Shown piece after piece: positions 22,032 through 32,328 of a stretch of DNA of 64,000 nt. Location: contig OZ243934.1 in assembly GCA_965214105.1 (NCBI GenBank), positions 96,374-160,373 of the forward strand. The letters run 5' to 3'. Within the stretch, counting starts at the first letter, position 1, and the number at the start of each line of letters is the position of its first letter. The notes under the pieces are model-generated. The model did no database searches. It was given only the letters and a program-made list of their open reading frames with translations, and had not been told where the DNA came from. This DNA comes from Phototrophicaceae bacterium. GTDB taxonomy: Bacteria; Chloroflexota; Anaerolineae; Aggregatilineales; Phototrophicaceae. A program made the position numbers and the translations under genes.

Positions 22032-22784
22032 TCAGGGATATAAATACGGTTGGCGCGGTTCATCGACCCGCTCGATCGCTTCGGCGAAGACGACGGGCAA
22101 GCGGTCCGCGCCGAAGCTTGATGCTTTTAATTGCCCCTGCACGCGCAGCCATTCGCCGGCGGCATAACCCGCCGCGCCAGTGCCGATCACCGGCATGCCG
22201 ATAGGAAAGGCATCGGCGACGCAGCAGCTCATCGTGAAGCGCGCGAGCATGAAGCCATCTTGCGGATGCGCCGGCTCGCGATAGACAAAGCCAATCACAT
22301 CCACCGGGCTGCCGTTGAATTGCGCAGGGCTAGCGGCGCGGTCGAATTCGCGCAGCCAATCCAGTATATTGCGATCCAGCGGGCTGCGCGCCAAGCCAGC
22401 GACGCCCACCGGGCTCAAGCTGACGCCGCCGTTCACCGCCTCGATGCCCAGGGACCGCGACGGAATTACAATCGCTATCAGCAGCGGAAAAGCCAGCACC
22501 AGCAGCATATCGGCTGTGATATGGTAATGATGATGATCGTGATGATGATGATCGTGGTGTGCCTGCTTTTGCGAGTTTAGGCTGTGGTATAGGCTGGTGA
22601 GCCCAAGGACGAAGAAGAGCAGCGCACCCACGGCAACCAGCCAAGCAAAGCGCTGATTGATGTAATTATCGAGATTGCCGGTCACTATCAGCAGCGCCAG
22701 GTAAATGCCCATGCCAAAAAGGATGAGGGACTTCGCCCAAGCGCTTCGGTCCACTGGGGCATGTTCTTGGTCGGGCGCCGTCAT
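22032..22784 (-). CDS. DUF1980/TIGR03943-type membrane protein with His-rich loop (partner of the upstream permease)
   Basis: Two N-terminal TM segments, HHDHHHHDHHHYH, and C-terminal RFTMSCCVADAFPIGMPV. Confidence 0.75.
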   Translation of the reverse strand: MTAPDQEHAPVDRSAWAKSLILFGMGIYLALLIVTGNLDNYINQRFAWLVAVGALLFFVLGLTSLYHSLNSQKQAHHDHHHHDHHHYHITADMLLVLAFPLLIAIVIPSRSLGIEAVNGGVSLSPVGVAGLARSPLDRNILDWLREFDRAASPAQFNGSPVDVIGFVYREPAHPQDGFMLARFTMSCCVADAFPIGMPVIGTGAAGYAAGEWLRVQGQLKASSFGADRLPVVFAEAIERVDEPRQPYLYP

Positions 22785-22812
22785 TGCTTCAGCCTCGCTC
22801 TAAATCCCAGCA

Positions 22813-23871
22813 TCAGAAATAAGCCAAAATGAGATTGATCACGGTCCCCGCCAGCAGGTTCATCACGAAGGGCAGCAGAACCAGGTAAAACACGATGCGG
22901 CGGCGGAAGACGCCGGTGAACATCAAGGTGCTTTTGATATCGACCATCGGCCCAAAGCTGAGGAAGCTGACGATAGCGCCGGTGGTGAAGGTGTTGACGA
23001 ATGCCAGCGCCAAGAAACTATCGACGGTTGAGCAGACGCTGAGCACATAGGCGAGAATCTGCATGAATACGACCGAGAGCACCGGTCCCGTGCCCAGTGC
23101 GAGCAGGCTTTCTTGTGGCACCAGCGTTTGCATCAGCGCCGCCAGAATCGAGCCGAAGATGAGAAAGCGCCCCATCTCGAAGAATTCGTCGCCAGCGATG
23201 CCCAGCGCCGCCATCAGCTTGGCGCGCGTCGATGGCTCGGGCTGGTCGCAATGCGCGTCATCGTCCTTGCCCGCGCCCAGCGCAATCGGCTTTAGCGCTG
23301 CCGACCGTTTCGTCAAGCTGCCAATAACCGTGCCGACGATGACAGCGACTAAGATGGTGACGATGATGCGGCCGATGAAGACGGGACCAAAGCCAAAGGC
23401 GATATAGGTGCTGGCGAAAACGATGGGATTCATGAATGGCGCCGCCAACAGGAAAGCCAGCCCCAGCGAAATCGGTGTGCCTTTGCTGAAGAGCCGGCGC
23501 GCCACCGGCACCACCCCACACTCGCAAACGGGAAACACCAAACCCAGAAAAGCGCCGCCAAGCGCCGCGCCCAGCGGATTCCGCGGCAGATGACGCATGA
23601 TGTCCTCCGATTTGATGAAGGTTTCGATCAAGCCGGAAGTAATCGAGCCTAGCAGCAGAAATGGCACCGCCTCAACGAAGATGCCCAGGAAGCGCGTGGC
23701 AAAGACGCTAAAGACCAGCATAAAGTCCCGGCTGGCGCTGTATGCCTGATAACCGATGGCAGCCAGCAAAAGCGCCATCAGCAGCGCCAAGCCGATGAAT
23801 TTTGCCTGCTGAGAGGAATTGAGGGAGCGAAGGCGGCGACGGGTCATTGCCTGCTCTGTTCCATAGCGCAC
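22813..23871 (-). CDS. permease (DUF318/ArsP-like) with CxCG motif; start may be ATG at 23847
   Basis: Polytopic. VFPVCECGVVPVARRL is characteristic of this permease family. Confidence 0.8.
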   Translation of the reverse strand: MRYGTEQAMTRRRLRSLNSSQQAKFIGLALLMALLLAAIGYQAYSASRDFMLVFSVFATRFLGIFVEAVPFLLLGSITSGLIETFIKSEDIMRHLPRNPLGAALGGAFLGLVFPVCECGVVPVARRLFSKGTPISLGLAFLLAAPFMNPIVFASTYIAFGFGPVFIGRIIVTILVAVIVGTVIGSLTKRSAALKPIALGAGKDDDAHCDQPEPSTRAKLMAALGIAGDEFFEMGRFLIFGSILAALMQTLVPQESLLALGTGPVLSVVFMQILAYVLSVCSTVDSFLALAFVNTFTTGAIVSFLSFGPMVDIKSTLMFTGVFRRRIVFYLVLLPFVMNLLAGTVINLILAYF

Positions 23872-23944: not shown

Positions 23945-25723
23945 TTAATCAGACGCGCCCGGCGCCCCATTGGCGGGCCGGCGGCGCGGGAGGACGCGGT
24001 AGATGGTGTCAATCGCTTCGAAGCCGGCTTTGGCTTTTCGCGTGGGCAGCGGCTCGGCTGGGATAGAATCTTTGACCAAGGCATAAGTCTCGGCGCTGAT
24101 AATAATCTCGCCCGGTTCCGCGTTTTCCTGCAAGAATTTGCCCACATCGGGCGCTTCGCCAAGGGCGGCGAACTCGATGCGGTCGGCGCCACCCACCATG
24201 CCCAGCACCGCATGCCCCGTGTGGATGCCGATGCAAAAACGCAGCGCCTGCTCCTTAGCGACGACTTCATGCAGCGATTCAACCTCCTCCAGAATCGCTA
24301 GCGCCGTCTGCACCGCCCGCTGCGCATGATCATCTTGCTGGTTCAATTGCGAATTCCAGAGCGCCTTGATCGCATCGCCGAGATACTGATCGACAATGCC
24401 GTCGTGGTCGTTGATGACATCGCTGGCTGCGCCTAGGTAGCGGTTGATGATGCGCATCAAATCTTCGGGCTGCAAATACTCGCTGAAGGCGGTGAAGCCA
24501 TCGACATCGGCGAACATTGCCGAGATCGTGCGCTCGGCTGGGCTGGTATCCAGCTCGCTGATCGAGCCGATATTTTGCAGCAACACGTCGGGCACGAAGG
24601 TGCCAAGCAGGCGGCGCTGTTCTTCTTGCTCTTTGCGCTCGGTCAAGTCGTCAATAACGAGGGCGACACCGTGATAGACGTGGTCATCGCTGCGCAGGGG
24701 GCTGGCAACCACCTGCCAATAGCGCTGCCGGCCCTGCCGCTCAAAACGCTCCGCCCAGATATGCTGCGTCTGCTCGCGCCGGACACGCTCGATAGAGTCA
24801 TAGAAATCATCGGTGACCGGGGGCAGCACCTCCTGCAAGCGCAAGCCCCGTGCCGTCTCGTTGCTGGCACCGGTGATTGCTTCCGCCGCTTCGTTGCAGA
24901 CCAGGACGCGATTATCGCCGTTGATGGTAATGACGCCAGAGCCGATGGAGGCGAAGATATTCGACAGGCGCGCTTGCATCTCTTCGATCAATGCCATTTG
25001 CGCGCGTATATCTTCGAAGAGGCGCGCATTCTCGATAGCGACGGCCGCCTGCTGGCCGAAGCTGGTCAGCAAGCCCAATTCGTTTTCCTTGAACAAACCA
25101 GCCATGATGCGATTATCACAATAGGCGACGCCGATCACTTCATCGCGCGCGATCAAGGGCACCGCCAAGATGCTGAGAAGGCTGAACCCGGCGATGCTCT
25201 CGCTGTGGCTGAATTGCTCATCAGCGCCAGCGTCGACCGTCAGCAGCGGCTCGCCGCTTTCCGCCACCATATTGATGACAGACCAACTGACGATACGCCC
25301 GCCCGCCGCCGTTTCTTCGGCGCTAAGCCCACGGGCGACAGCAAATTCCAGCGCGCCGCTTTCGCGATTCTTCAGCACGATATAACCGCGTTCCGCCTGC
25401 GTCAGTTGAATGACCGTCTCCATCACTTCATTGAGGACGGCGTCGGTTTCTTGCGCTGAATTGACCAGGGCGGTCGTCTCCGCCAGGCGCCGCAGCTGCT
25501 GCAGCTGCAGATGGGTATCCACCAAGCCAACAGAGAGCTTGTCAAAGCGGGAGCGGATGGTCCATAAGCGGTCGATAGCATTGGCCGGCAGGCTAATGCC
25601 GCGGCGGCGCAGCAATTCCCCCTGCTGCTCTAGCATCGTCTTCACTTCGTCAGCGCGCGTCTTCAAGCTCTTAAGCTGGGATTGAATCGCGCTGAATCCA
25701 CTTGCGCTTGCCAGCTCGCTCAT
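23945..25723 (-). CDS. coiled-coil/GAF/PAS class III nucleotidyl cyclase, C1-like (metal-binding half-site)
   Basis: FADVDGFT and DQYLGDAIKALW keep both metal Asp residues. The canonical G..VN.A.R is GEAPDVGKF (Asn->Asp, Arg->Phe). The ATG at 25723 forms an ATGA overlap with the upstream paralog stop. The track start is 25729. Confidence 0.9.
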   Translation of the reverse strand: MSELASASGFSAIQSQLKSLKTRADEVKTMLEQQGELLRRRGISLPANAIDRLWTIRSRFDKLSVGLVDTHLQLQQLRRLAETTALVNSAQETDAVLNEVMETVIQLTQAERGYIVLKNRESGALEFAVARGLSAEETAAGGRIVSWSVINMVAESGEPLLTVDAGADEQFSHSESIAGFSLLSILAVPLIARDEVIGVAYCDNRIMAGLFKENELGLLTSFGQQAAVAIENARLFEDIRAQMALIEEMQARLSNIFASIGSGVITINGDNRVLVCNEAAEAITGASNETARGLRLQEVLPPVTDDFYDSIERVRREQTQHIWAERFERQGRQRYWQVVASPLRSDDHVYHGVALVIDDLTERKEQEEQRRLLGTFVPDVLLQNIGSISELDTSPAERTISAMFADVDGFTAFSEYLQPEDLMRIINRYLGAASDVINDHDGIVDQYLGDAIKALWNSQLNQQDDHAQRAVQTALAILEEVESLHEVVAKEQALRFCIGIHTGHAVLGMVGGADRIEFAALGEAPDVGKFLQENAEPGEIIISAETYALVKDSIPAEPLPTRKAKAGFEAIDTIYRVLPRRRPANGAPGASD

Positions 25724-27519
25724 TCGCATCGACTCACTTCATAAGCCCGCATCGCGACCGAAAGCCCTTTGCCAGAGATGGGCGCGCGCGGGCGAAAGTC
25801 ATAGCGCTGCGGACCCTGGTGGCGCGCCAGGATATGCTCCAGCGTTTGCTGCACAATCGTGATCGTGCCGCGGGCGGCATTTTCTTGGATGCGTTTGGCG
25901 GTGTTGATGCTGTTGCCAAGCGCCGTGAATTCGCGCCGCTGGAAGCTGCCCACATTGCCCAAAGTCGCCTCGCCGGTGAACATGCCGATGATATAGAAGT
26001 GCGGCTCGGGGTCGATACCCATTTGCCGATAGAGTTCGACAAAGCGCTCGCGCATCAGCAAGCCGCATTCAAGCGCCATCTGCGCGTGATTGCGCTGGGG
26101 ATTAAGCTGGGTATTGAAGAGCGCCATCACCTCATTGCCCATGTACTTGTCGATGATCCCGCCGCTGCTATGGATGCAGGCGGTAGCGATCGACTGGTAT
26201 TGGTTCAAAAGCCGAAGTTTCTCGCTGGCGGCGACATCGGGCAGCGTGGCCCAGGGGCGGACGTCGGCGAAGAGGCAAGTCACCTCGCGCCGCAAGCCGC
26301 CTAGCCCGATATTGGCGATCTCGCTGATCTGGTCGACCATGCCTTCGGGCAAGATCCGCTTCATGGCGTTGATGGTGCTTTCATGCTCGTGCAAATGCGT
26401 GACATCATCCATGACCAGGGCAACGCCCTGCGTCATGTCGTTGCTGTCCTTTAGCGGCGACAGCGAAAGCGCCAAGGCAACCGGGCCGCGGCTCGGCAGC
26501 TCGGCGCTTAATTCAAGCGAGTGATCGATGTCATTCAATTTGACATGGTCCAAGTGGTCTTGCAGCTCAAGCGCCGCGTTCCGCATCACCTGGGCGACAT
26601 CGTAGCCGACCGCCACCTCAGGCGACATATCGAGAATCTCGGAGGCGGCGCGGTTGAAGGTGTGCACCAAGTCATTCGAATCGATGGCGATGATGCCGCT
26701 GCCCACCGATGAAAAGATATTGTCCATCAACTCCTTGACTTGGGTAAGCTCAGCCAAGACCAGCTCAGCGCGCATATACATGCGGGCATTGGCAATGGCG
26801 ACCGCAGCCGTATTGGCGAAAGCCATCATCAGGTTCAGTTCGCGCTCGGTAAAAATGCCAGCCACTAAGCGATTATCCACATAGACAACGCCGATGACCC
26901 GCTCTTTGTAGCGCAGCGGCACACACAAGACAGAGCGCAGCGTAAAATTGATGATGCTCTGATTCTCTGAAAGCCGCTCGTCCTGGTAGGCGTTATCCGC
27001 CAGCAAAGGATTGCCGGTTCTCATCACTTCGTGGACGACCGTCAGGCTGATTTGCGGTCTGTCGCTGGTGTTCATGCTGGCGCCCATCAGCCCGCCTTCG
27101 CTGCTAATGCGGAATTCCAGCTCGCCGGTCTCCTCGTTGGATAAGACGATGTAACCGCGCTCGGCATTCGTCAGCACGATGACCAGTTCCATCGTTTCTT
27201 GCAGGACGGTATCCACATTCAGCGAATTGGTAATGCGGGTGGACATCTCCGAGAGGGCGCGCAGCTGCTGCAGCTCGGTCTGCTCCTCAAGCACGTTGTT
27301 TTCCAAGCGTTTAAAATCTTGCTTGAGCTGCTCGATGCTGCTGATGATGGCGGCTGGCATGGCGATGCGCCGGCGCCGCAGCAATTCCCGCTGCGCTTCC
27401 AGCGTCTTAGTCACCTCGTCCAACTGTTCTTCCAGCTGTCTCAGCTCGCTTATCAAATTGCTCGCTGCCGCTTGCGCTTCCGACATGCGATCGCTCGCCT
27501 CTCTCAATCCAAGCCGCAT
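25720..27519 (-). CDS. coiled-coil/GAF/PAS class III nucleotidyl cyclase, C2-like (substrate/transition-state half-site)
   Basis: FADVRPWAT. DKYMGNEVMALF has the second metal Asp replaced by Asn and keeps the Lys. GNSINTAKRIQ keeps Asn and Arg. Confidence 0.9.
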   Translation of the reverse strand: MRLGLREASDRMSEAQAAASNLISELRQLEEQLDEVTKTLEAQRELLRRRRIAMPAAIISSIEQLKQDFKRLENNVLEEQTELQQLRALSEMSTRITNSLNVDTVLQETMELVIVLTNAERGYIVLSNEETGELEFRISSEGGLMGASMNTSDRPQISLTVVHEVMRTGNPLLADNAYQDERLSENQSIINFTLRSVLCVPLRYKERVIGVVYVDNRLVAGIFTERELNLMMAFANTAAVAIANARMYMRAELVLAELTQVKELMDNIFSSVGSGIIAIDSNDLVHTFNRAASEILDMSPEVAVGYDVAQVMRNAALELQDHLDHVKLNDIDHSLELSAELPSRGPVALALSLSPLKDSNDMTQGVALVMDDVTHLHEHESTINAMKRILPEGMVDQISEIANIGLGGLRREVTCLFADVRPWATLPDVAASEKLRLLNQYQSIATACIHSSGGIIDKYMGNEVMALFNTQLNPQRNHAQMALECGLLMRERFVELYRQMGIDPEPHFYIIGMFTGEATLGNVGSFQRREFTALGNSINTAKRIQENAARGTITIVQQTLEHILARHQGPQRYDFRPRAPISGKGLSVAMRAYEVSRCE

Positions 27520-27595: not shown

Positions 27596-27929
27596 GGGAG
27601 TGGTGAATATCGTGGATATGCCCATTTCACAAACCCCACCCCCGGCCCCTCCCGACGGGTCAGTGTCGGCGGGCTGTGTCTACGCGCCCTACGCGACCCC
27701 GATGAATCAGGGAGGGGAGCATTGCTAGCAAATCCTGAGTCCGAGCCTTTACAAACTCCGAAAAAGATACATAGCTCCCCTTCCCTAGCTCGCTGGGGAA
27801 GGGGCTGCGCCGCGTGGACACTGGCCGGTCGGGGATGGGGTCGAAAAACCGAAGACGATCGACCAGTAGCGGACAAGTCTTACAATTCAGCGTGAGCAGG
27901 CTTTATATCCACCGAATTCACCACTCCCC
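27596..27929. repeat. mosaic hairpin-rich MITE-like element, copy B
   Basis: Bounded by GGGAGTGGTGAAT (27596-27608) and ATTCACCACTCCCC (27916-27929). The interior shares the CCCCTTCCCTAGCTNGCTGGGGAAGGGG hairpin and GGTCGGGGATGGGGT modules with the other copies. Confidence 0.75.
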
Positions 27930-30518: not shown

Positions 30519-30556
30519 ACGGGGCGAGTGAGAGGCTCCGCGTGGGAAGGTGCGCT

Positions 30557-31651
30557 ATGTACAAGTCATTTCGGGTGAAGAATTTCCGCTGCTTCAAGGA
30601 CTTGCAGATCAGCGATTTGGGACGGGTGAACCTGATTGCGGGCAAGAACAACACGGGCAAGACGGCCTTGATGGAGGCGATGTATATACTTACCAAGCCA
30701 TTAATACCTCAAACACTTTTCGACCTGTTGAGGATTCGCGGCATTGAAGTCGGAACCAATCGCAAAGAGGCTTGGTCACTATATTTCCACAGACGCGATA
30801 AAAGCCATGCTATCGAACTAATAGCAGACCAGAACATTCCGACAACACTCAGCAAATCTTTGTTGCTCAGTGAAGTTCCAACTGATGATGAATATACAGA
30901 ACATCTCAATAAGTATCTACTCAAGGCGAGAGAACTGGGATTTCTTCAAGATAATAGTTCATTCACTCTAGGATTTGACGATGCTCTGCTGAAGTTCTTG
31001 CTGACGCACTGCAAAGATATGACGGAGATATATTTGCCATCACGATCTGAATTGCCTATCTATGCTAAATCTCTTGGACAATTTGAGTCATATTTTAGTC
31101 CAGCAACAGGCGGCCAATCCAATCAAGAATTAGCGGATGTTTTCAGCATGTCGGTCAGTGAGAACAGAATAGATGAGCTAATAGAGTTGCTCAATATTTT
31201 CGAGCCAAAACTAAACAATCTATGGCTGCTCACTATTCCCGGCGGCTTGACAATTTGGGCTCATGTAAATGGAAATCGTTTTCCCCTTCAATCTATGGGG
31301 GGGGCAACAAATCGTATTGCCCAGATTTATATGACACTTGTGGCGAGGCGGCCGCAAGTCATCTTCATCGACGAAATCGAAAACGGCATCCACCACAGTG
31401 TACAAAAGCAAGTCTGGCAAGCCATCGGGCAGCTAGCTCGTGAACAAAACATCCAGGTCTTCGCAACAACACATAGTTACGAAATGATAGAAGCTGCTCA
31501 CGAAGCTTTCAAAGGCGACGACCCGTATGATTTCCGCTTTCACCGCCTAGATAGAGACATCGAAACCGGGAATGTCAAAGCAGTGACTTACAACGATTTC
31601 GGTATGAAGGCGCTGGCAAACTTTGACTTCGACCATGAGGTACGCGGATGA
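30557..31651 (+). CDS. ABC-type (AAA_21/AAA_15-like, RecF/SMC-fold) ATPase
   Basis: Walker A AGKNNTGKT, signature-like QSMGGATNR, Walker B VIFIDEIENGIH, H-loop FATTHS. GGAAGG RBS lies 6 nt before the ATG at 30557. Markedly AT-richer than the flanks. Confidence 0.85.
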   Translation: MYKSFRVKNFRCFKDLQISDLGRVNLIAGKNNTGKTALMEAMYILTKPLIPQTLFDLLRIRGIEVGTNRKEAWSLYFHRRDKSHAIELIADQNIPTTLSKSLLLSEVPTDDEYTEHLNKYLLKARELGFLQDNSSFTLGFDDALLKFLLTHCKDMTEIYLPSRSELPIYAKSLGQFESYFSPATGGQSNQELADVFSMSVSENRIDELIELLNIFEPKLNNLWLLTIPGGLTIWAHVNGNRFPLQSMGGATNRIAQIYMTLVARRPQVIFIDEIENGIHHSVQKQVWQAIGQLAREQNIQVFATTHSYEMIEAAHEAFKGDDPYDFRFHRLDRDIETGNVKAVTYNDFGMKALANFDFDHEVRG

Positions 31652-32328
31652 CGCAGTTGATCCCGGCCGGGAAGACCCGACTACTGTTAGTAGAGGGACG
31701 AGACGACAAAGCGTTCTTCATCCAGCTAGGTAAGCATCTTGGTTTCGATGACGCGACACCAATCCACATTCTAGAATACGGTGGCAAAGATGGAATCGCC
31801 CAGCGCTTATTCCAGTTGACTCAACTGCAAGAATTTGGCAAGGTTTCCGACATTGGTGTGGTACGCGACGCGGATTATGAGACTGACGCCTTCCAGAGTA
31901 TTCAAGACGCAATACGCACCTGCAATCGCAACAGCCCCTTAGAGTTGCCCGTCCCGCGATTTGCGATTGAGCCCACATGTGGGCAGCCAGCAATTTCTGC
32001 GTTATTGCTACCGGCAATCGGCCGCGAAGGCATGCTGGAAGATTTGGTGCTTGAGGCGCTAAGCGACGACCCTGTGATCACTTGCGTCGACGAATTCTTT
32101 GCATGTTTACAGCGATCCGACATCCAAGTCGCCAAACATCGCCTGCCCAAAGCCAAAGCCCGAGTCTTCATCAGCGGTAAGAACGCATCCGATACGGCAG
32201 TGGGCGATGACATCAGCAGAAAATACTTCTCCGATATCTACCGAATGAGTTGGTGGAAACCAGAATATTGGGACCACCCCGCCTTCGACGACGCCAAAGC
32301 CTTCCTCAGCCAACTCCTCGCCGACTAG
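31648..32328 (+). CDS. TOPRIM-like protein (DUF3226/DUF4276/RloB/DUF4435 class; exact family unresolved)
   Basis: N-terminal RLLLVEGRDDKAFF (conserved Glu16), VVRDADYE (D74-x-D76), downstream acidic GMLEDLVLE. ATGA overlap with the ATPase stop. Confidence 0.7.
   Translation: MTQLIPAGKTRLLLVEGRDDKAFFIQLGKHLGFDDATPIHILEYGGKDGIAQRLFQLTQLQEFGKVSDIGVVRDADYETDAFQSIQDAIRTCNRNSPLELPVPRFAIEPTCGQPAISALLLPAIGREGMLEDLVLEALSDDPVITCVDEFFACLQRSDIQVAKHRLPKAKARVFISGKNASDTAVGDDISRKYFSDIYRMSWWKPEYWDHPAFDDAKAFLSQLLAD

Follow-up and report, generated by a model that had tools for sequence, protein, structure and literature searches.

Complementary loss of catalytic residues in two overlapping class III cyclase genes of a Phototrophicaceae bacterium points to a probable obligate heterodimeric adenylyl cyclase

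Results

The stretch of DNA analysed here (the window, 64,000 nucleotides) carries on its minus strand two overlapping genes: an upstream gene (25720..27519), coding for a 599 aa protein referred to as the 'C2-like' subunit, and a downstream one (23945..25723), coding for the 592 aa 'C1-like' subunit. The stop codon of the former and the start codon of the latter share an ATGA overlap (25720..25723, minus strand). The junction between both ORFs reads ATGCGAATGA, so that in-frame ATGs for the downstream gene occur at two positions, 25729 and 25723. A start at 25729 was ruled out because orthologues start with the ATG located in the overlap with the upstream stop codon, here the one at 25723, which agrees with the overlap originally proposed. 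Residue numbers of the downstream protein are those of the 594-aa version that begins at the alternative ATG at 25729 (ORF 23945-25729, minus strand). The ATGA overlap suggests translational coupling of the pair; a -4 or -1 overlap was present in all 23 of the same-genus pairs retrieved and also in most pairs from the other families of the order. Promoter and terminator scans around the pair gave no signal above chance. A functional link to the gene neighbours was considered and dropped, since amine oxidase, pair and ArsP permease follow one another in this order only inside the genus.

GAF, PAS and Guanylate_cyc domains were detected by Pfam in both proteins, which share 37% identity across 554 residues. 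In AlphaFold2 single-chain models both have a common layout of two long N-terminal helices, GAF, long helix, PAS, short helix and cyclase domain. In this sense, the identical architecture of the original prediction holds for the three domains, but its 'coiled coil' corresponds only to a predicted helical pair, the two long N-terminal helices of the models (27226-27516, minus strand, in the upstream protein). The GAF (residues 102-245) and PAS (275-372) domains of the upstream protein, with the long helix between them, are encoded at 26404..27216, and those of the downstream protein (GAF, 95-235; PAS, 265-361) at 24647..25447, both on the minus strand (Pfam, AlphaFold2). The class III cyclase domains, delimited with Pfam, HMMER and AlphaFold2, occupy residues 409-597 of the upstream protein (25729..26295, minus strand) and 398-579 of the downstream one (23993..24538, minus strand). 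The top solved matches of the upstream GAF were the GAF domains of PDE5, PDE10 and PDE2 (E 1e-12 to 1e-10), and its motif read by eye, N-R-x5-F-x3-E-L, is only a partial match to the NKFDE of cNMP-binding GAF domains (PDE2/5/10, CyaB1 type).

Both cyclase domains scored above the PF00211 cut-off of 21.9 bits (upstream 37.3, downstream 64.1) and were modelled with a pLDDT of about 85-94; the downstream model matched CyaC, CyaB, Cya2, RhGC and VC1 with TM 0.75-0.88. We derived residue equivalences from HMMER alignments to CyaC (1wc0/1wc1) and Cya2 (2w01), and CyaC D1017, K1057, D1061, T1139, N1146 and R1150 match the structure-chain numbering with a single offset of 983. Every motif cited in the original prediction was found in the two proteins, and each substitution falls on a catalytic position of the CyaC and Cya2 structures. 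At the six canonical positions the upstream protein has D419 (codon 26263-26265), K458 (26146-26148), N462 (26134-26136), T532 (25924-25926), N539 (25903-25905) and R543 (25891-25893), all on the minus strand; it retains Lys, Thr, Asn, Arg and the first metal Asp, and the second metal Asp is replaced by Asn462. The downstream protein has D408 (24506-24508), Q448 (24386-24388), D452 (24374-24376), A521 (24167-24169), D528 (24146-24148) and F532 (24134-24136), also on the minus strand; here both metal Asp (408, 452) are retained, and Lys, Thr, Asn and Arg are replaced by Gln448, Ala521, Asp528 and Phe532. The retained first metal Asp of the upstream protein and the loss of the second base-specifying residue of the downstream one (Thr to Ala) had not been noticed originally. 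Thus, the six-residue catalytic set is incomplete in either chain and complete only across both chains. Upstream K458/T532 align with CyaC K1057/T1139, and Thr, not Asp, at the second substrate-specifying position, together with Lys, assigns the pair to class IIIb.

The tandem and its complementary active-site degeneracy are conserved in relatives, with the identical split in 43 pairs compared within one order. In the upstream type (n=43), K, T or S, N and R were each present in 43/43 and the second metal Asp in 0/43; relatives have Ser, Thr or His at this second position, and the first Asp is changed to Glu or Asn in 12/43. In the downstream type, both Asp were retained in 41/41, while Arg was found in 0/40 and Asn in 5/40. 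Single-copy orthologues that bear the cyclase domain were intact, with D-K-D-T/S-N-R in 20/20; they constitute a natural control, with the pattern predicted by a transition from homodimer to heterodimer. These counts speak against a chance origin of the split. Two losses are common to all pairs: the upstream type always lacks the second metal Asp, and the downstream type always lacks the transition-state Arg. An unbiased scan of columns invariant among single-copy proteins found that G422, F423, S427, E428, D462 and A463, of the metal/phosphate loop, were lost in the upstream type only, and T532, N539 and R543, plus K458 and K584 partly, in the downstream type only. The loss therefore extends over entire functional halves, beyond the six named residues. 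No fusion protein uniting both halves was found among the 43 pairs.

In the trees, the upstream, downstream and solo types each formed one side of a branch (98-99). When outgroups were included, upstream and downstream types were sister clades (99) nested among the solos. All 43 pairs go back to one duplication and so count as a single origin. Judged from the trees, this origin is independent of that of mammalian C1/C2 and lies within the Anaerolineae. For the two genes, and likewise for their cyclase domains, dN/dS was 0.09-0.22, a rough figure because dS is near saturation (0.6-1.8). Both genes are under purifying selection, and a pseudogene or drift reading was ruled out by the low dN/dS together with the invariant complementary residues.

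The genome (97% complete) contains no PF00211 domains other than these two. It encodes cNMP-binding proteins, and its sole recognisable cNMP receptors are two SulP-STAS-cNMP anion transporters. For cAMP signalling in Chloroflexota, the pair matters as the genome's sole class III cyclase.

Discussion

We propose that the two gene products probably form an obligate heterodimer of C1/C2-like design, which would make cAMP at a single ATP site. The residue equivalences, the order-wide complementary loss, the purifying selection and the conserved stop/start overlap lead to this reading, and the original split-site heterodimer interpretation is thereby supported at the sequence level. As each gene retains one half of the active site, cAMP would most likely be made only by the mixed pair. 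The pair arose when a canonical homodimeric GAF-PAS cyclase was duplicated once in tandem and the two copies then degenerated in complementary ways. They would be the two subunits of a single soluble, sensor-coupled class IIIb adenylyl cyclase, and the ATGA overlap probably keeps their translation at similar levels. The subunits would pair in parallel through the N-terminal helices, the GAF-PAS linker helix, the pre-catalytic helix and the cyclase domains, and the head-to-tail catalytic interface would hold one complete pocket out of two. To this pocket the downstream subunit would supply the metal-binding Asp 408/452 and an intact FADxxGFT phosphate/metal loop, and the upstream one Lys458/Thr532 to specify adenine and Asn539/Arg543 for the transition state, so converting ATP to cAMP. 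No catalysis would take place in the mirror pocket, composed of upstream D419/N462 and downstream Q448/A521/D528/F532, and either homodimer would have crippled pockets only, leaving each protein inactive alone. Activity would be set by two non-identical GAF-PAS modules, with integration of two different inputs.

It may be argued that the heterodimer is not obligatory and that one homodimer, most plausibly the upstream one, is usefully active while the other paralogue is mainly regulatory or inhibitory. The upstream protein of this genome has five of the six canonical residues and Mg2+ can be ligated by Asn, so Asn at the second metal position with the first Asp retained might give residual homodimer activity. 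Also, loss of Arg or Asn in mammalian C2 mutants reportedly lowers catalysis and does not abolish it, a further point against an obligate pair. However, we consider this reading improbable, as Ser, Thr or His stand at the second Asp position in relatives, 12 of 43 carry Glu or Asn in place of the first Asp, and the upstream-type phosphate/metal loop is degenerate throughout. In addition, Rv1625c D300A is inactive by itself (PMC4821796). Both metal Asp, strictly retained by the partner (41/41), would not be needed by a purely regulatory protein.

Canonical catalytic residues are missing from each protein, and degenerate cyclase domains with non-catalytic roles occur in other families, so both could be pseudo-enzymes whose cyclase-like domains serve for dimerisation or ligand binding and make no cyclic nucleotide. 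This is highly improbable given that exactly complementary halves are invariant across order-level divergence (35-45% identity), that both cyclase domains show a low dN/dS, and that the genome has cNMP-binding proteins yet no further class III cyclase. Equally remote is a heterodimer whose product is cGMP or another nucleotide: the class III fold is compatible with several specificities and the guanylyl cyclase Cya2 is among the closest structures, but the base-specifying Lys/Thr is that of the adenylyl cyclase CyaC (K1057/T1139) and is invariant in kind in the upstream type, while Cya2 aligns Glu/Gly at these positions.

If the obligate heterodimer is true, the pair would offer a soluble, tractable model of how such heterodimers arise by duplication and complementary loss, with intact single-copy relatives alongside, and a test bed for the control of one catalytic site by two different sensor modules. 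It would also be a warning for annotation, since each gene singly resembles a dead cyclase or receives a generic cyclase name. A wider and rather unlikely reading is that the lineage records the transition from homodimer to C1/C2-type heterodimer, that the dead pocket may now be allosteric, and that, with the two SulP-STAS-cNMP transporters as sole recognisable receptors, the two-input sensor could act through cAMP directly on the transport of an anion, possibly bicarbonate or sulfate, without a CRP-type regulator. The stages of this transition would be the intact single-copy relatives, early pairs that lost only the second Asp and Arg, and late pairs that lost Lys/Thr/Asn too, all in one bacterial class. 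Allosteric takeover has precedents in the sites for forskolin in mammalian cyclases and for bicarbonate in soluble adenylyl cyclase.

Bacterial class III cyclases are described as working through homodimerisation, and the heterodimeric design with one active site is treated as eukaryotic, derived from the bacterial homodimer (PMC4821796, PMC9552081). Our full-text literature search found no description of a naturally occurring class III heterodimer encoded by two bacterial genes; heterodimers are mentioned in a 2004 actinobacterial survey (PMC2447327).

The mammalian membrane adenylyl cyclases (VC1/IIC2 core 1AZS, AC8) resemble the proposed heterodimer in having one complete and one degenerate pocket between homologous class III domains, one domain with two metal Asp and the other with Lys, Asn, Arg and the second base-specifying residue. 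VC1 (1azs_A) was matched by the downstream model with TM 0.83, and AC8 by the downstream sequence at residues 414-558, in its first cyclase domain (C1). However, the mammalian enzymes are one fused chain with 6TM bundles and of class IIIa (Asp), whereas here there are separate polypeptides of two overlapping genes, soluble, with GAF-PAS sensors and of class IIIb (Thr). Soluble guanylyl cyclase alpha/beta is active only as a heterodimer of two separately encoded sensor-cyclase subunits, as proposed for the pair; its beta-1 subunit was matched by the C-terminal half of the upstream protein, and the top-ranked structural matches of the downstream model were sGC A chains, which we take to be the alpha subunit. 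In chytrids, the rhodopsin-guanylyl cyclase RGC1/2 with NeoR also consists of separately encoded sensor-cyclase subunits, active only as a heterodimer (PMC7655827). Unlike the pair described here, sGC and RGC/NeoR are eukaryotic, produce cGMP and use other sensors (H-NOX/PAS or rhodopsin).

Of the known systems, the closest in sequence and fold is the homodimeric class IIIb CyaC of Spirulina (1WC0; E 1e-23; TM 0.75-0.79), and cyclases of this kind share with the pair the Lys/Thr adenine pair and a similar sensor-then-cyclase order. Anabaena CyaB1, a GAF-GAF-PAS cyclase, is another homodimeric bacterial class IIIb enzyme, and the single-copy orthologues from Anaerolineae belong to this type. 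These enzymes have six residues per chain and two equivalent sites, whereas here each chain has one half. From motif spacing and the Rv1625c numbering, D300 and R376 of Rv1625c are presumably the second metal Asp and the transition-state Arg universally lost in the pairs. The D300A and R376A mutants of Rv1625c are inactive singly, and their co-expression restores activity (PMC4821796). Those mutants are a laboratory construct from one gene, while the pair reported here is natural, fixed, encoded by two genes and further degenerated.

Gene organization and domain architecture

The upstream gene of the pair (P0001, 25720-27519, minus strand) encodes 599 aa, and the longest form of the downstream one (P0002, 23945-25729, minus strand) 594 aa. 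Their junction reads ...CGATGCGAATGA..., and the downstream ORF has in-frame ATGs at 25729 and 25723, the latter making the ATGA overlap that had been read from the sequence. We consider 25723 the supported start, since the downstream genes of the orthologues begin at an ATG overlapping the upstream stop. Indeed, this overlap, of 4 bases (ATGA) or 1 (TGATG/TAATG), is kept in 23/23 same-genus pairs fetched, and in the order's other families most pairs overlap likewise or leave gaps of 1-35 nt. The stop/start overlap suggests a coupled, near-equimolar synthesis of both subunits. Downstream residue numbers refer here to the 594-aa form (minus 2 for the 25723 start).

Immediately upstream of the pair, a MITE-like element (27596-27928) with inverted GGGAGTGGTGAAT termini occupies most of the 433-nt gap and may carry or disturb the promoter of the pair. 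The window contains 9 copies of the terminal motif where 0.04 are expected, arranged as four inverted pairs and one solo terminus. An ArsP_1-type permease and a DUF1980 protein (22032-23871) follow directly downstream on the same strand; they are probably without functional link to the pair, because this gene order is conserved within the genus only. Further away, an AT-rich stretch at 30542-32328 (GC 0.45-0.48, about 0.60 around), beside tsaD, contains an AAA_15/AAA_21 ATPase gene and a DUF3226 gene, and looks like a defence-type island.

The common architecture proposed for both paralogues was borne out: Pfam finds GAF, PAS and Guanylate_cyc in the two proteins, which share 37% identity over 554 residues, and AlphaFold2 models built from orthologue alignments give both the same layout of two long N-terminal helices, GAF, a helix of ~48 residues, PAS, a short helix and the cyclase domain. 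The latter reaches pLDDT of about 85-94 in both models, and a pTM of 0.37 makes the relative placement of domains unreliable. The downstream cyclase domain resembles those of CyaC, P. aeruginosa CyaB, Cya2, rhodopsin-GC and VC1 (1azs_A), with TM 0.75-0.88. The best solved matches of the upstream GAF are the cNMP-binding GAFs of PDE5, PDE10 and PDE2, its NKFDE motif being only partial.

Complementary loss of catalytic residues

In HMMER alignments, the regions around the motifs match CyaC (1wc0/1wc1; E 1e-22 to 1e-23 with the downstream protein) as well as Cya2 (2w01) without gaps. The aligned Asp, Lys, Asp, Thr, Asn and Arg correspond to 1wc0 chain indices 34, 74, 78, 156, 163 and 167, which a single offset of 983 turns into D1017, K1057, D1061, T1139, N1146 and R1150, the catalytic residues of CyaC. 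Their spacing is that of the class III signature, with the second Asp four residues after the Lys, the Asn seven after the Thr and the Arg four after the Asn. In the upstream protein, the first metal Asp (D419, in FADV), the base-specifying residues K458 and T532 and the transition-state N539 and R543 are present, and the second metal Asp is N462. The downstream protein has both metal Asp (D408 and D452), with Q448 and A521 at the base-specifying positions, and D528 and F532 at those of the transition-state Asn and Arg. The codons of the six positions were verified in both genes. The complementary substitutions of the original prediction are thus placed by the CyaC/Cya2 alignment at catalytic, and not at non-catalytic, positions.

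In addition, downstream residues 408-410 (24500-24508) lie in FADVDGFT, where Asp replaces the conserved Arg of FADxRGFT after the first metal Asp. This change is found in the window and its closest relatives, the Arg being invariant in single-copy proteins (unduplicated orthologues).

All 20 single-copy proteins with a cyclase domain are canonical at the first Asp, Lys, second Asp, Asn and Arg, and have Thr (19) or Ser (1) at the remaining position. The upstream type (n=43) keeps Lys, Asn and Arg in 43, Thr in 42 (Ser in 1) and the first Asp in 31 (E 7, N 5), and the second metal Asp in 0/43 (N 31, T 7, S 4, H 1). Among the 41 downstream-type proteins with a cyclase domain, of which 40 could be scored at Asn and Arg, both metal Asp are present in 41/41, Arg in 0/40 (F 27, L 6, Y 3, K 3, Q 1), Asn in 5/40, Lys in 21/41 and Thr or Ser in 13/41. 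Two losses are universal, that of the second metal Asp among upstream-type proteins and that of the Arg among downstream-type ones; in the latter, Lys and Thr are lost in the lineage of the window itself (its genus and the nearest relatives).

When all columns with at least 90% conservation among single-copy proteins were scanned without bias, degeneration proved to follow functional halves beyond six hand-picked residues. Losses specific to the upstream type fall in the FADxRGFTxxSE metal/phosphate loop (G422P, F423W, S427, E428), at D462 and A463 and in a few other columns, and those specific to the downstream type at T532, N539 and R543, partly at K458 and the C-terminal GKG lysine (K584), and at G407, G408, M465 and E594.

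Occurrence and history of the pair

Conservation as a tandem, a check suggested with the original prediction, was examined in 40 relatives. In each of the 24 same-genus genomes the downstream protein has two matches, which are neighbours on a single contig in 23/23 with loci fetched and lie on two different contigs in the remaining one (G014); six other families of the order also have adjacent pairs, and one family of this order, f4, carries only one copy. GTDB species genomes contributed 7 further pairs (one downstream copy truncated by the contig end) and 18 further single-copy genes, 17 of which encode a cyclase domain; all come from MAGs of Anaerolineae or Chloroflexota. An orthologue is present in 74 of 300 genomes sampled evenly from the class, with adjacent pairs in the window's family only and one copy or unlinked copies in the other matching families.

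In an IQ-TREE tree of 69 full-length proteins, upstream, downstream and single-copy proteins each occupy one side of a branch (SH-aLRT 99, 98 and 99). When rooted with four distant GAF/PAS-cyclases, whose very long branches make the rooting tentative, the upstream and downstream types are sister clades (99) nested among single-copy proteins, and the f4 singles are nearer to the pairs than the remaining singles are (96). The most parsimonious scenario is that an intact homodimeric enzyme was duplicated once in tandem and that the copies then underwent complementary loss; with a single origin, the 43 pairs represent retention and not repeated invention. The fully canonical f4 single copies (L047, L048 and L049, from G027, G033 and G039) are probably near the pre-duplication state and constitute a handy natural control for the pairs. 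Neither cyclase domain is drifting: pairwise dN/dS of the window genes against 22 of 23 same-genus orthologue pairs (dS was saturated in the 23rd, which gave no value) is 0.09-0.22, whether computed over the whole genes or over either cyclase domain, rough values given dS of 0.6-1.8.

A putative heterodimeric cyclase

Class III pockets lie at the dimer interface (VC1/IIC2, CyaC), with two Asp and the phosphate loop from one subunit and Lys, Asp/Thr, Asn and Arg from the other. A heterodimer would have one complete pocket, made of downstream D408/D452 and upstream K458/T532/N539/R543, and its other pocket would be dead; both homodimers would have defective pockets only. ATP as substrate and cAMP as product (class IIIb) are predicted because the base-specifying pair is Lys/Thr. 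Sensor-cyclases usually dimerise in parallel through their helical segments, and those of the pair would favour hetero pairing. The strong comparative evidence supports reading the pair as a predicted obligate heterodimer.

Regarding the possible targets of cAMP, no PF00211 domains other than the two of the pair occur in the window's genome (97% complete; 3.87 Mb in 2 contigs), which has only two cNMP-binding domains, both C-terminal on SulP (Sulfate_transp)-STAS proteins (G000:C2:437745-439400, L131:2346-4001; G000:C1:510772-512400, L132:2373-4001). These anion transporters are the probable cAMP receptors of the pair; the genome yielded no CRP-type regulator with PF00027. It also encodes one CYTH protein that may be a class IV cyclase.

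By motif spacing and residue numbering, D300 and R376 of the cyclase Rv1625c presumably correspond to the two universally lost positions of the natural pairs. A direct precedent from the laboratory is that the D300A and R376A mutants are each inactive, and that their co-expression brings activity back (PMC4821796). Bacterial class III cyclases are described as requiring homodimerisation, the pseudo-heterodimer being the mammalian condition, derived from a bacterial monomer (PMC4821796; PMC9552081; PMC9433096). Obligate heterodimers with separately encoded subunits have been described in sGC and in chytrid RGC/NeoR (PMC7655827). A full-text literature search, whose coverage excluded most subscription papers, found no natural bacterial two-gene class III heterodimer. 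The pair would be a class III cyclase of C1/C2 design in a form that is encoded by two genes, soluble, coupled to GAF-PAS and bacterial.
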